Shown here in pieces: positions 23,445 to 28,354 of a DNA stretch of 64,000 nt. Position numbers and translations under genes: made by a program. Under the pieces are notes generated by a model that did not search any database, was not told where the DNA came from, and was given only the letters and a program-made list of their open reading frames with translations. The stretch is from an uncultured bacterium (GTDB lineage Bacteria; Krumholzibacteriota; Krumholzibacteriia; LZORAL124-64-63): contig CAVSGO010000005.1 in the NCBI GenBank assembly GCA_963727525.1, forward strand, positions 672,001 through 736,000. Direction: 5' to 3'. Within the stretch, counting starts at the first letter, position 1. Each line of letters opens with the position of its first letter.

Positions 23445-23574
23445 GAGGACGCTCTGGCTTGCCGGTCGGGGCAATACTCCTCTAGATTGGGTTCGGCCAT
23501 CCTCGCATCAGGGACGAAACCGGGCGTGGCTGCTGCCGTGTGAACTGAATGTGTTCGAGCCATAGGAGCGGCTG

Positions 23575-26178
23575 ATGCACAAGTTCCGCAAGTTCGTCGT
23601 GACTCCGAGTCTGCCGCCGAAGCTCGCACCGCTGCTCGAGATCGCGCGGAATCTCTGGTGGATCTGGAATCCCGAAGCGATCGCGCTGCTGCGCCGCATC
23701 GATCCCGATCTCTGGGAAGAGCGCAATCACAATCCGATCGCCGTCCTCGGAAGCCTCTCGTCGGAGCGGTTCAACGAGCTGGCGCGCGACCCGGCCTTTC
23801 TCGCCCACCTCGAGAGCGTGCACGACGACCTGCAGCGTTACCTGCAGATGCCGTCGTGGTTCGAGGAGGAGCACCCCAACGTGAGTGGCAGCCGCATCGG
23901 GTACTTCTCCTTCGAGTTCGGACTGCACGAATGCCTGCCGCTCTACTCCGGCGGCCTCGGCTGCTTGGCGGGCGATCATCTGAAGTCGGCGACCGATCTC
24001 GGCATTCCGCTCGTGGCCGTGGGTCTGGCCTACCAGTACGGGTACTTCCGGCAATACCTGAACCACGACGGCTGGCAGCAGGAAGACTACCCGATCAACG
24101 ACTTCTACAACATGGTCATGACGCTCGAGAAAAACGCGGACGACACCCCCGTGGTCATCGAGATCGAGTATCCCGGCCGTGTGGTCAAGGCGCGCATCTG
24201 GCGCGTCCAGATCGGGCGCAATCCTCTGTTCCTGCTCGACACGAATCTCTTCGAGAACCGTCCCGAGGACCGCGACCTGACGAGCAAGCTCTACGGCGGC
24301 GACACCGACATGCGCATCCGCCAGGAGATCCTGCTGGGCATCGGCGGTCTGCGCGCCCTGAAGGCGTTGAACGTCGAACCCTCGGTGTGCCACCTCAACG
24401 AGGGCCACTCGGCTTTCCTCGCGCTCGAGCGCATCCGGTTGCTGATGGAGGAGCAGAAGCTCCCATACAGCGTGGCGTTCGAGCTGGTTCGTGCCACGAA
24501 CGTGTTCACGAGCCACACCCCCGTGCCGGCAGGCAATGACTACTTCGATCCCACCCTCGTGCGCACCTACCTCAAGGGCATGGCCGACCAGCTCGGGATC
24601 GGGCTGGAGGGCCTCCTCGCGCTCGGGCGCCAGGACCCGAACGACAAGGCCGAGTCGTTCTGCATGACCGTGCTCGCGCTGCGCCTCAGCCAGTTCGCCA
24701 ACGGCGTGAGCGAGCTGCACGGGCACGTGACACGGGACATGTGGAAGAAGATCTGGCCCGGCGTACCGGTGCACGAGATCCCGATCTCCCACATCACCAA
24801 CGGCATCCATACCCGCAGCTGGCAGTGCAACGAGCTGGCGCAGCTCTACGACCGCTACCTGGGACCGCGCTGGTACGACAAGCCAACCAATCACATGGTG
24901 TGGCAACGCGTCGACCGCATTCCCGACGCCGAGCTGTGGCGAGCGCACATGCGCATGCGCGAGCGCCTGGTGGGCTTCGTGCGGCGGCGCCTGCGCGCGC
25001 AGCTCGCGGCGCGCGGCGTGAGCCAGGCCTACGTGCAGGCCGCCGGCGAGGTGCTCGACCCGGATGCCATGACGATCGGATTCGCCCGACGGTTCGCGAC
25101 CTACAAGCGCGCCGACCTCGTGCTGCGCGACCCCGAGCGCCTTTCGCGCATCCTCAACAATCCCGATCGACCGGTGCAGATCATCTTCGCCGGCAAGGCG
25201 CACCCCAAGGATCATCCCGGCAAGGAACTGATCCGCAAGATCGTGCACCTGGCCCAACGCGACGACTTCCGCAACCGCATCGTCTTCCTCGAGGATTACA
25301 ACATCGAGGTCGCGCGCTACCTCGTGCAGGGTGTGGACATCTGGCTGAACAACCCCCGCCGTCCGCTCGAGGCCAGCGGCACCAGCGGCATGAAGGTGCC
25401 TGTGAATGGCGGCATCAACCTGTCGGTGCTCGACGGCTGGTGGTGCGAGGCGTACGACAAGCAGAACGGCTGGGCCATCGGCGCCGGCGAGATGTACGAG
25501 GATCCGGCATACCAGGACGAGGTGGAATCGACCAACCTCTACGAGTTGCTCGATAACGAGATCGCGCCGCTCTTCTACAAGCGCAGCAGCGACGACGTCC
25601 CGCGCGACTGGGTCCGCGTCATGAAGAATTCGATGAAGACCGTGAACACCGAGTTCAACACCAACCGCATGGTCGAGGAATATACCCAGCGCTTCTACAT
25701 GCCCTGCGTGGAGAACCGGCTGCGCCTGTTTGCGAACGACGCGAAGGATGCGGTGGAGCTGGCGCGCTGGCGCGCGCACGTGTCGCAGCACTGGCCCGCC
25801 GTGTCGGTGGCCGACATCGCAGCGGAGGACCAGGAGGCCCAGCCCATGGGTTCGAGCTTCCCGGTCCAGGCGACGATCGAGCTGGGCGACCTGGGCACGG
25901 GGGATATCCTCGTGGAGATCTACCACGGGTTGCTCGACCGCAATGGCGAGGTCATGAACGGCGAGACCGAGATCATGACGCCGGAACACGAGGGGGTGAC
26001 GGGGCGCGTGGTCTACACCGGCAGCATTCCCTGCCGACGCTCGGGGCAACGTGGTTTCACCGTGCGCGTGACCCCTCGCAACGCCGCCTTCCCCCTCAAC
26101 CGCTTCGAAACCGGACTCATCCGCTGGTATGGCGACGACGTCACGGCGCCGCGGCCGCGGGCCCAATACGCGTCGTGA
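23575..26178 (+). CDS. glgP: Alpha-glucan (glycogen) phosphorylase
   Basis: YSGGLGCLAGDHLKS, HLNEGH, GFARRFATYKRA, EASGTSGMK PLP motif, LSVLDGWW. Confidence 0.96.
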   Translation: MHKFRKFVVTPSLPPKLAPLLEIARNLWWIWNPEAIALLRRIDPDLWEERNHNPIAVLGSLSSERFNELARDPAFLAHLESVHDDLQRYLQMPSWFEEEHPNVSGSRIGYFSFEFGLHECLPLYSGGLGCLAGDHLKSATDLGIPLVAVGLAYQYGYFRQYLNHDGWQQEDYPINDFYNMVMTLEKNADDTPVVIEIEYPGRVVKARIWRVQIGRNPLFLLDTNLFENRPEDRDLTSKLYGGDTDMRIRQEILLGIGGLRALKALNVEPSVCHLNEGHSAFLALERIRLLMEEQKLPYSVAFELVRATNVFTSHTPVPAGNDYFDPTLVRTYLKGMADQLGIGLEGLLALGRQDPNDKAESFCMTVLALRLSQFANGVSELHGHVTRDMWKKIWPGVPVHEIPISHITNGIHTRSWQCNELAQLYDRYLGPRWYDKPTNHMVWQRVDRIPDAELWRAHMRMRERLVGFVRRRLRAQLAARGVSQAYVQAAGEVLDPDAMTIGFARRFATYKRADLVLRDPERLSRILNNPDRPVQIIFAGKAHPKDHPGKELIRKIVHLAQRDDFRNRIVFLEDYNIEVARYLVQGVDIWLNNPRRPLEASGTSGMKVPVNGGINLSVLDGWWCEAYDKQNGWAIGAGEMYEDPAYQDEVESTNLYELLDNEIAPLFYKRSSDDVPRDWVRVMKNSMKTVNTEFNTNRMVEEYTQRFYMPCVENRLRLFANDAKDAVELARWRAHVSQHWPAVSVADIAAEDQEAQPMGSSFPVQATIELGDLGTGDILVEIYHGLLDRNGEVMNGETEIMTPEHEGVTGRVVYTGSIPCRRSGQRGFTVRVTPRNAAFPLNRFETGLIRWYGDDVTAPRPRAQYAS

Positions 26179-26202
26179 GGACCGGCTCGTCGAGCACACT
26201 GA

Positions 26203-26248: not shown

Positions 26249-26578
26249 CTAACCCAGACCAGGCACGATCCGTTTCAACTCGTCGATGTACGCCTGGAAC
26301 CGGCTCCGCCCGCCGCTAGAAAGCTTGACGACGGTACGCGGCCGCTTGCCGACGAAGTCCTTCGCGATCTCCACCATCCCCCCGGCCTCCAGCTTCGACA
26401 GGTGTACGGACAGCGTGCCGTCGGTGAGACCCGCCTCCACCTTCAGTTCGGTGAACGTGGCACCGGCCGCGTGCGTCGCCAGGTATGACAGGACGAGCAG
26501 TCGTGCACGACCGTGGATGAGAGGAGACAGCGGTGTGAGGTCGTCGCGCTCGGACGCGGACGCCGCCGATGCTGCCAC
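26249..26578 (-). CDS. Winged-helix transcriptional regulator (MarR/ArsR-like, HTH_34 type)
   Basis: LIHGRARLLVLSYL...FTELK...LTDGTLSVHLSKLEAGGMVEIAKDFVGKRPRT...GRSRF..YI..L. Confidence 0.9.
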   Translation of the reverse strand: MAASAASASERDDLTPLSPLIHGRARLLVLSYLATHAAGATFTELKVEAGLTDGTLSVHLSKLEAGGMVEIAKDFVGKRPRTVVKLSSGGRSRFQAYIDELKRIVPGLG

Positions 26579-26669
26579 GGGCGCTGGCCTCCCTGCCGTG
26601 CGCGCGGTGTCAGGTGGCGGCGTTCAGGGACCGGCGCGAGGCTGCGCGGCGAGGTGCCGGCCGGTCCCC

Positions 26670-26965
26670 GCCATCCGGAGGGTCGCCGCGGAATCCCTGC
26701 CACGGGGGTCGTCTACGCGCAGTGGGAGCAACACCGCGCGAACCGCGCATCCCTTCGCGGCGAGAGGTTGAATCGGGGGGCGGCTGGCACCCAGGACCAG
26801 TGACTCCGCCCCCCTTCGGCCGTCGGGGTTCCTTCCCCTTCCCCTTGCGGGGGTCCGTGCCTTGCGGCATGCGCTCCGTCCGGACCCGGCGTCAACCTCC
26901 AGACAGGCCCGCTTCCGTGACCTTGGCGGTTCCGCCTCCTTGCGGATGCCCGCCTGCCGGATGAC
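26670..26965 (-). ncRNA. Putative structured non-coding RNA or leader of unknown family
   Basis: No credible ORF; starts ~7 nt after a TTGACA-17-TAATAA promoter; 5' and 3' ends can pair; nested abutting helices; three CCGCAAGG GCAA-tetraloop hairpins. Confidence 0.55.
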
Positions 26966-26972
26966 ATATGCT

Positions 26973-27001
26973 TTATTAATTCAAGTACTTCATTTTGTCA
27001 A
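26973..27001 (-). promoter_or_regulatory. Near-consensus sigma70 promoter overlapped by an inverted repeat (candidate operator)
   Basis: TTGACA (27001-26996), 17-nt spacer, TAATAA (26978-26973) in an AT-rich patch; TACTT-N9-AAGTA at 26986-27004. Confidence 0.75.
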
Positions 27002-27154
27002 GTAACTTTTTCCGCGGGTACGGTCAGTCCGTTCCGCGGCGATCCGATCCCGCTTTACTCCACGAGGCCGCCCGCTATCTTTGGCGCGTATCCTGTATAT
27101 TCCGCACTGCAACCGGCGTCGCCGTGGGCCACCCGACACGCCGAGGAGGGCCGC

Positions 27155-28354
27155 ATGAAGACTGCGAAGTACATCGAGATCGAGGAGCGCTACGGAGCCC
27201 ACAACTACCACCCGCTCGACACGGTCATCGCGAAGGCGGAAGGCGTGTGGGTCGAGGACGTCGACGGAAAGCGGTACCTCGACTTTCTCGCAGCGTACAG
27301 CGCGGTCAATCAGGGGCACTGCCACCCGCGCATCCTCAAGGCATTGCAGCGTCAGGCACGCAAGGTGACGCTCACCAGCCGCGCGTTCCGCAACGACCAG
27401 CTCCCGCTCTTCTGCCAGGAGATCTGCGAACTCACCGGCTTCGCGAAGGTGTTACCGATGAACTCGGGCGCCGAGGCCGTGGAAACCGCGATCAAGGCCG
27501 CGCGCAAGTGGGGCGAGCAAGTCAAGGGCGTGCCGAAGGACAAGGGCGAGATCATCACCTGCGCCGGCAACTTCCATGGCCGTACCACGACCATCGTGAG
27601 CTTCTCCACCGACGAGCAGTATCGCGAGGGTTTCGGCCCGTTCACCCCCGGCTTCAAGACGATCCCCTTCGGCGATGCCGATGCGCTGGCCAAGGCGATC
27701 ACGCCGCACACGGTGGCATTCCTGGTGGAACCGGTGCAGGGCGAAGCGGGCATCGTGGTGCCGCCGGAGGGCTTCCTGAAACGCGCCGCCGAGCTGTGCC
27801 ACGAGCACCGCGTGCTGCTGATCTGCGATGAGATCCAGTCGGGCCTGGGGCGCACGGGCAAGCTCTTCGCCTACGAGTGGGACGGCGTGCAGCCCGACGG
27901 CCTGATCGTGGGCAAGGCGCTCTCGGGCGGCTTCCTGCCGGTGAGCGCGTTCCTGAGCAGCGACGAGGTGATGGACGTCTTCAAGCCGGGTGATCACGGG
28001 TCGACGTTCGGCGGCAGCCCGCTGGCGATGGCCGTGGCGCGCGAGGCACTCAAGGTGATCGTCGAGGAGGACCTCGTCGGTCAGAGCGCCAAACTCGGCC
28101 CGTGGTTCATGGAGAAGCTAGGTGAGATCAAGAGCAAGAGCATCGTCAAGGTACGTGGCAAGGGCCTGTGGATCGGCCTCGTCCTCAACACGCCGGCCCG
28201 CCCTTACTGCGAGGCCCTGAAGGGCGAGGGGGTCCTCTGCAAGGAGACCCACGAGAACGTCATCCGCTTCGCGCCGCCACTGGTGATCACGAAGAAAGAA
28301 CTGAACTGGGCCCTGCGCCGCGTGGCGAAGGTGTTCAAGCGCATCGACGGCTAG
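27155..28354 (+). CDS. rocD: Ornithine--oxo-acid aminotransferase
   Basis: GAHNYHPL, YSAVNQGHCHP, TLTSRAF, LPMNSGAEAVETAIK, DEIQSGLGRTG, GKALSGG, HGSTFGG. Confidence 0.95.
   Translation: MKTAKYIEIEERYGAHNYHPLDTVIAKAEGVWVEDVDGKRYLDFLAAYSAVNQGHCHPRILKALQRQARKVTLTSRAFRNDQLPLFCQEICELTGFAKVLPMNSGAEAVETAIKAARKWGEQVKGVPKDKGEIITCAGNFHGRTTTIVSFSTDEQYREGFGPFTPGFKTIPFGDADALAKAITPHTVAFLVEPVQGEAGIVVPPEGFLKRAAELCHEHRVLLICDEIQSGLGRTGKLFAYEWDGVQPDGLIVGKALSGGFLPVSAFLSSDEVMDVFKPGDHGSTFGGSPLAMAVAREALKVIVEEDLVGQSAKLGPWFMEKLGEIKSKSIVKVRGKGLWIGLVLNTPARPYCEALKGEGVLCKETHENVIRFAPPLVITKKELNWALRRVAKVFKRIDG

Follow-up and report, generated by a model that had tools for sequence, protein, structure and literature searches.

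The intergenic RNA analysed here is the single-copy, family-restricted 5′ leader of an HTH_34 winged-helix gene, and its core (positions 26773-26893, minus strand, of the window, by which we mean the whole 64,000-nt stretch of DNA) is a real RNA structure. The unit is the whole leader of ~375 nt, which combines a four-way junction core with a chain of local hairpins. On the strength of the GGA motifs held in its hairpin loops, we propose, with a probability of about 0.58, that the leader is bound by CsrA, that this binding represses translation of the winged-helix regulator and that the leader may also titrate CsrA.

Locus, promoter and gene linkage

The RNA lies inside a 576-bp intergenic gap between the minus-strand winged-helix gene and a divergent class-III aminotransferase gene (27155-28354). 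The winged-helix gene begins with a GTG codon (26576-26578, minus strand), and the nearest solved chain to its product is the hypothetical protein PH1061 (1UB9, E 1.9e-7). The sequence-only reading had placed a strong minus-strand promoter, TTGACA-17-TAATAA, ahead of the segment, and comparison bears this out: both hexamers are present (Table 1), the segment starts 7 nt past TAATAA at position 26965, and the promoter block, consisting of TTGACA, the palindrome AAGTACTT in the spacer (26983-26990) and an A+T-rich −10, was near-identical in 19 of 19 loci listed, from 19 genera. An A/T-rich tract lies upstream of the promoter. A consensus promoter scan listed no promoter at the locus because TAATAA fails the scan's rule for the second hexamer. 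The palindrome block resembles an operator and is perhaps a candidate site for the downstream winged-helix protein. Within 26973-27010, AAGTACTT is a perfect palindrome flanked by TACTT/AAGTA half-sites. A regulon search of the genome with the palindrome located the extended promoter motif once in 4.66 Mb and the 8-mer in 26 places; when these 26 contexts were inspected, the promoter copy and two copies in A/T-rich stretches of contig C5 stood out, and the remaining copies lay in ordinary G+C-rich surroundings. Downstream of the locus, a 905-aa minus-strand open frame (23482-26199) runs antisense to the glucan phosphorylase gene (23575-26178, plus strand); it is a by-product of high G+C and not a gene.

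Table 1. Features of the leader and its locus, listed in the direction of transcription (positions in the window)
Feature	Position	Strand	Basis
Promoter: −35 TTGACA 26996-27001, 17-nt spacer, −10-like TAATAA 26973-26978	26973-27001	minus	sequence, comparison
5′ "U" GGA hairpin, loop AAGGAG, 5-bp stem, upstream of the core	26931-26946	minus	54-leader map
5′ strand of the 8-bp helix of the sequence-only reading (partner 26764-26771)	26892-26899	minus	MFE fold; without family support
Core four-way junction	26819-26890	minus	covariation and independent RNAalifold fold
Hairpin H2, long and G+C-rich: 9-bp stem, 4-bp inner stem, 9-nt loop 26788-26796	26775-26814	minus	covariation
Hairpin H3, 6-bp stem, loop AAGGGAUG	26742-26761	minus	54-leader map
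Hairpin H4 (9-bp hairpin of the sequence-only reading), GCUCC in loop	26716-26740	minus	sequence, MFE fold
Hairpin H5, 6-bp stem, loop CAGGGAUU	26686-26705	minus	54-leader map
Hairpin H6, 11-bp stem, 24-nt loop	26625-26670	minus	54-leader comparison
Ribosome-binding site presented as GGC[AGGGAG]GCC, 9 nt before GTG	26586-26597	minus	55-sequence comparison
Winged-helix gene, 109 aa	26249-26578	minus	PF13601 HTH_34, E 3.1e-22

No Rfam 15 model matched at its gathering score anywhere in the window, and models run over 801 bases around the RNA returned five chance-level matches only (best E 0.82), in agreement with the absence of known-RNA hallmarks noted from the letters alone. The intergenic gap is single-copy in its own genome. 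BLASTN detected a part of ~130 nt (window about 26764-26899) in 18 of the 24 family genomes searched and in none of 16 genomes drawn from the class outside the family. Conservation across the family was shown with a covariance model of the core, which matched once, and once only, in 81 of 91 family genomes; it matched 51 of the 55 good-quality family genomes and 26 of 28 genera. In a class-wide sample, the model matched 40 of 43 family genomes and none of 107 genomes from eight sister families.

The position assigned to the RNA, between a strong promoter and a winged-helix regulator, proved constant among these genomes. The winged-helix gene was downstream in all 19 first loci, and in 41 of 41 model-matched genomes the best winged-helix match lay on the same contig and strand, just downstream. 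Among the three unmatched family genomes of the class-wide sample, one has a contig edge that begins inside the RNA (G013, locus L075), one holds only a 43%-identical winged-helix homologue (G086), and in the third no winged-helix homologue was found (G024). In sister families, HTH_34 homologues (loci L067-L074) sit directly behind a frame that by eye resembles a hydrophobic membrane protein; this is a different gene pair, apparently common there, and since these homologues follow that frame without a leader, they are uninformative on the RNA.

Covariation and extent of the structured leader

The covariation analysis was built on two alignments. From the first, of 19 copies, seven helices were written down; 91.8% of the cells were paired, against 39-59% when the strands were slid, and 17 of the 34 pairs had changed on both sides, a count reached by 0 of 500 shuffles. 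The second comprised 55 copies (54 distinct rows) aligned to the covariance model, a fit that itself favours the structure; pairing was seen in 96.8% of cells among the 54 distinct rows and fell to 36.6-54.2% on sliding, two-sided changes were present in 29 of 34 pairs, and none of 500 shuffles matched any of the measures. RNAalifold run on the 55-copy alignment predicted the same helices, with compensatory change in 25 of its 29 pairs. The core helices therefore covary strongly. G-U pairs are frequent (16 at pair 29-51 and 18 at pair 118-170) and would be A-C mismatches on the other strand, which identifies the minus strand as the RNA strand. Two open frames of 84 and 86 aa begin at or within the RNA, and the possibility of a small conserved ORF was rejected because the changes are paired and variable-length hairpins come and go.

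The junction is closed by a GCCG/CGGC helix (26887-26890 with 26819-26822) whose central two pairs are invariant in 55 of 55 rows, while the neighbouring helices covary. Its first arm, Ha, pairs 26882-26885 with 26853-26856, can carry an optional inserted hairpin and bears the loop motif G-A-N-G-G-A-G-C (26873-26880), six letters of which (G, A, G, G, A and C) show no change in any of the 55 rows. The second arm, Hb (26841-26852), has a variable loop, and the third, Hc (26825-26838), presents the hexaloop AAGGAA, which reads A-N-GGA-N in 52 of 55 rows. A junction with small hairpins had been drawn at this place from sequence, and covariation and RNAalifold both support it. The same holds for the adjoining 9-bp hairpin 26775-26783/26806-26814, which forms the outer stem of H2: changes on both sides were found in 9 of 9 pairs of this stem (helix 6) and in 4 of 4 pairs of the inner stem (helix 7). 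The two GCAA-loop hairpins and the GGGG-AAGGAA-CCCC hairpin described earlier are present in this genome, but conservation does not extend to the GNRA loops: the CCCC/GGGG hairpin is variable in its loop, and about 15-17 of the 54 distinct rows lack the other GCAA hairpin. The 9-nt loop of H2 has the same letters in 39 of 54 leaders, and other genera have a GGA loop there; no conserved complement to this loop was found within the 54 leaders. The first four letters of the H2 loop could pair with an A-GGA-A loop.

The conserved hairpins continue to the ribosome-binding site, which speaks against the discrete 295-nt domain closed by its own ends that had been proposed. The leader runs from about 26965 to that site, and in 54 relatives it measures 244-524 nt (median 382). 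Upstream of the core, at least one GGA-loop hairpin is present in 46 of 54 leaders, with stems that differ. Within 55 nt after the core, a position occupied here by H3, such a hairpin recurs in 43 of 54 leaders with 36 distinct stems and AAGGAU as the commonest loop, and 27 of 54 have an H5-like hairpin at 55-120 nt past the core. H6, which contains the further hairpin predicted at 26627-26635/26660-26668, recurs at the same offset with covarying stems in 28 of 54 leaders. The flanking segments diverge in length and sequence, and the loops and the pairing persist. Relatives vary in the H4 region. The H4 loop contains GCUCC (26722-26727), a complement of the invariant GGAGC in the Ha loop (26873-26877), and the H4 region has GCUCC in 14 of 55 sequences, against 6.7 expected; the two could form a lineage-specific pseudoknot.

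The long-range helices fared differently. The MFE fold contains a helix between the ends of the segment (26953-26965/26670-26681), but the core begins anywhere from 15 to 139 nt past the predicted start site in relatives, and the helix cannot therefore be a fixed feature. The proposed helix 26683-26690/26756-26763 competes with the conserved hairpin H3. The 8-bp helix 26764-26771/26892-26899 is good in this sequence, where it extends to 9 bp (14 of 300 shuffles had one as long), but across the 55 sequences it does not rise above chance, with a mean of 5.55 bp against 5.22 bp in shuffles. Duplex energies of cognate and non-cognate strands were not separated from chance for this helix (−8.27 vs −6.06) or for an outer helix (−16.64 vs −16.14); the longest contiguous helix averaged 7.8 bp against 7.64 bp in shuffles, and a 9-bp register search found 9/9 pairs in 17 of 55 sequences against 13% of shuffles, which is not distinct from chance. 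Registration in a MAFFT alignment of the extended region was too poor for counting the outer helices. By eye, several genera keep outer-helix complementarity with different letters, and an outer helix in this G+C-rich leader is possible. The GNRA loops and coaxial long helices, on which the sequence-only reading had rested its case for a functional RNA, are thus variable in the first instance and without comparative support in the second.

Folding energy was of limited help. The full 296-nt segment folds no better than shuffled sequence (−150.2 vs −144.6 ± 5.2 kcal/mol, z −1.08; 32 of 200 shuffles were as good), and the 136-nt core did somewhat better (z −2.18; 4 of 200 shuffles matched it), so that folding energy alone is insufficient to carry the finding. 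The energy of the full segment and the non-significant tests of the long-range helices are what favours an RNA with no function, that is, chance pairing in G+C-rich intergenic DNA kept by shared descent only. This explanation is already contradicted by the compensatory changes (29 of 34 pairs, matched by 0 of 500 shuffles), by the agreement of RNAalifold, by the persistence of loops and pairing where the flanks diverge and by the retention of the element in 26 of 28 genera, and we consider it extremely improbable.

GGA loops and candidate control by CsrA

The most consistent feature of the leaders is a short motif held in loops. A-N-GGA in hairpin loops is described as a signature of CsrA binding sites (PMC7652899), and it occurred 4.70 times per leader in the 54 leaders against 0.71 in dinucleotide shuffles, a count reached by 23 of 5400 shuffles; G+C-rich sequence makes short stems easy to find, and the shuffles control for that. 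The total of A-N-GGA motifs was 7.2 per leader against 2.5 in shuffles, and three permuted control motifs were found in loops only 0.72-1.26 times per leader. The leader of this genome has six GGA-loop sites: the U hairpin, the Ha loop, Hc, H3, H5 and the ribosome-binding site. The ribosome-binding-site motif was found in 55 of 55 sequences (the 54 leaders and L063, which lacks only a promoter match), in all 54 leaders a hairpin loop contains it, and a further GGA hairpin is located no more than 75 nt before it in 33 of 54. Genome-wide, five 400-nt intervals contain four GGA hairpins with stems of at least 4 bp; four of these fall within long open frames, among them a Lys/Glu-rich ribosomal-protein-like gene, and the leader is the sole non-coding one.

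The form of these hairpins can be compared with in vitro selected CsrA ligands, for which the SELEX consensus is RUACARGGAUGU, with GGA in a hairpin loop in 51 of 55 ligands, six-nucleotide loops in 44 and mostly four or fewer stem pairs (PMC7652899). Typical GGA hairpins of the leaders have AAGGAU or ACGGAU as the loop, on stems that differ, and thus match both the consensus and the six-nucleotide loop, which supports the CsrA reading. Against it, many of them have stems of 5-7 or more G-C-rich pairs, often longer than the SELEX ligands favour. Moreover, the invariant closing-helix pairs, the H2 loop and the junction itself are features that CsrA binding does not need, and they allow for a second role of the junction, for example binding of a ligand or another protein or the pre-organisation of two GGA loops.

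The genome encodes one CsrA (gene at G000:C7:1012664-1012816; PF02599, 82.3 bits), which scores above two NCBIfam equivalog cut-offs (NF002469: 87.8 bits vs a cut-off of 73) and aligns end to end, from residue 1, with solved CsrA/RsmE chains. The csrA gene adjoins a FliW-like gene and flagellar genes. It was found in 24 of 24 family genomes searched and in 34 of 41 genomes that included sister families without the RNA; csrA is thus distributed more widely than the RNA, and the phyletic pattern, which does not discriminate, counts against the CsrA reading. Also against it, a 2026 machine-learning study predicts that few Krumholzibacteriota CsrA proteins repress a B. subtilis hag reporter, and its authors note that CsrAs predicted not to repress hag may still bind other RNAs (PMC13443453). 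A few kb from csrA and fliW, two tandem flagellin genes (G000:C7:1007984 and C7:1009027; loci L077 and L078) have their ribosome-binding site inside the loop of a 4-5-bp hairpin, and the first also has an upstream hairpin that bears two GGA.

Known precedents suggest how CsrA control might operate at this locus. In the repression described for CsrA, a dimer bridges an upstream hairpin and the Shine-Dalgarno site (PMC7652899), and in C. jejuni, a FliW-type system, the flaA leader presents GGA in two adjacent hexaloops and is both a target and a titrator of CsrA (PMC4894983). We propose that the strong cross-genus promoter drives a leader of ~375 nt on the mRNA of the HTH_34 regulator, and that this leader would fold into a four-way junction and a chain of local hairpins with six GGA loops on display. 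CsrA dimers would bind these loops. Seated on the ribosome-binding-site hairpin and on an upstream hairpin close by, CsrA would keep the ribosome off and repress the regulator at the level of translation, the mode of action of CsrA on glgC, hag and flaA. Because csrA has fliW and flagellar genes as neighbours, regulator levels would then track the state of flagellar assembly. The high-affinity-looking upstream sites and the strong promoter suggest that an abundant leader may also soak up CsrA, and the promoter palindrome would be the regulator's own operator.

The junction can also be read as a new riboswitch-like or other cis-acting sensor, in which the junction and H2 would recognise a small molecule or some protein besides CsrA, perhaps the winged-helix protein, and control translation or elongation, the GGA loops being structural. 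Such a sensor agrees with a compact junction that has invariant letters (closing-helix pairs in 55 of 55 rows; H2 loop in 39 of 54 leaders), with an optional inserted hairpin of variable length like that of many aptamers, with an RNA that has no Rfam match, and with a conserved structured domain always placed 5′ of one gene; the moaA leader, an aptamer that also holds CsrA sites, is a precedent (PMC7652899). On the other side, the invariant unpaired bases are in hairpin loops and not in a junction pocket, one motif recurs at five or six separate hairpins, and some of these lie outside the junction at variable positions. In addition, no terminator-like site was listed by the scan anywhere in the leader, the sole associated gene encodes a transcription factor and so gives no clue to a ligand, and the element is confined to one family. 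We regard a sensor as unlikely. Of the initial proposal of an undescribed ncRNA or riboswitch-like leader, the conserved structured leader without an Rfam match stands, but riboswitch-like is not its best description, as the invariant unpaired bases are found in A-N-GGA hairpin loops.

Transcription was examined in sequencing runs. Words matching the stretch were found in six of them at small shares of 0.04-0.13, with none above 0.13 of the sampled words. Contigs of relatives assembled from RNA libraries cover the core, all from two metatranscriptome runs of one study; such contigs cannot show transcript ends or prove transcription, as RNA libraries may contain DNA, and parts of the stretch left uncovered in this comparison carry no meaning. 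One contig of 282 nt (depth 13.5) covers 26731-26954, with 12 differences in 224 nt; it stops 11 nt short of the predicted start and extends about 58 nt beyond 26731. Two others (depth 92 and 136) cover 26776-26856 and 26776-26814. These contigs give a weak hint that the leader is expressed, perhaps abundantly.

The contigs, the 282-nt one included, are likewise a weak hint of a separate abundant sRNA of ~290 nt that would end before the regulator gene and act in trans, as a CsrB/RsmZ-type sponge or by base-pairing, with the gene read by read-through only. A very strong-looking, conserved promoter and several GGA sites point the same way. Such an arrangement is nevertheless quite improbable: the scan listed no intrinsic terminator-like site between the RNA and the gene, the conserved hairpins run up to the ribosome-binding site, the RNA, at one copy per genome, was never found apart from the gene (41 of 41), and family genomes without the RNA also lack the orthologous gene or have a contig edge there.

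Relation to known systems and significance

The leader shares several traits with known CsrA-repressed leaders (E. coli glgC and pgaA, B. subtilis hag, C. jejuni flaA), namely several GGA hairpin loops in a 5′ leader, a motif over the ribosome-binding site and, a short way upstream, a hairpin that looks high-affinity; csrA lies beside fliW here, as it does in the systems of hag and flaA (PMC7652899; PMC4894983). It differs from them in that the controlled gene encodes an HTH_34 transcription factor and not a flagellin or a metabolic enzyme, in that the leader is long, with a covarying four-way junction and an invariant non-GGA loop, and in that CsrA binding is here a prediction. We know of no counterpart to such a junction and loop in CsrA-repressed leaders. 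Repeated A-N-GGA hairpins behind a strong promoter and possible CsrA titration recall the sponges CsrB, CsrC, RsmX, RsmY and RsmZ; unlike these, whose Rfam models gave no match here even at E up to 10, the leader has only about 5-7 sites, has no terminator-like site of its own and is always fused to a coding gene. The E. coli moaA leader, with its Moco aptamer and two CsrA sites, is likewise a conserved structured leader domain that contains CsrA-type sites (PMC7652899), but no known aptamer class matches here and the gene context suggests no ligand.

A wider interpretation would make the locus a self-contained CsrA homeostat of a new kind, in which the abundant leader, made from the very strong promoter in a FliW-type (non-proteobacterial) lineage, takes the part of a CsrB-like sponge, the winged-helix protein binds AAGTACTT, and the junction clamps one CsrA dimer through two GGA loops. 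With CsrA controlling translation of the winged-helix protein, free CsrA would set the synthesis of its own RNA antagonist. A review describes fliW-bearing organisms as not those known to use CsrB-type sRNAs (PMC7652899), and the known targets of FliW-type CsrA are almost only flagellar mRNAs, with the flaA leader as the only described RNA antagonist (PMC4894983; PMC7652899). We consider a homeostat of this kind rather unlikely.

The RNA is absent from Rfam 15 and restricted to one bacterial family; it would be a new RNA family if the CsrA reading holds, and on present evidence it is no categorically new system. Under either the CsrA reading or that of a sensor the finding is family-restricted and computation-based. 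If the junction binds a ligand instead, it would represent a new riboswitch class controlling a regulator. If CsrA binds as proposed, a transcription factor would be under CsrA control in an uncultured phylum with a flagellar, FliW-type CsrA. The question of whether divergent CsrAs keep their GGA specificity is raised by the prediction of few hag-repressing CsrAs in this phylum (PMC13443453), and the leader, with its six candidate sites, would offer a compact substrate for asking it.
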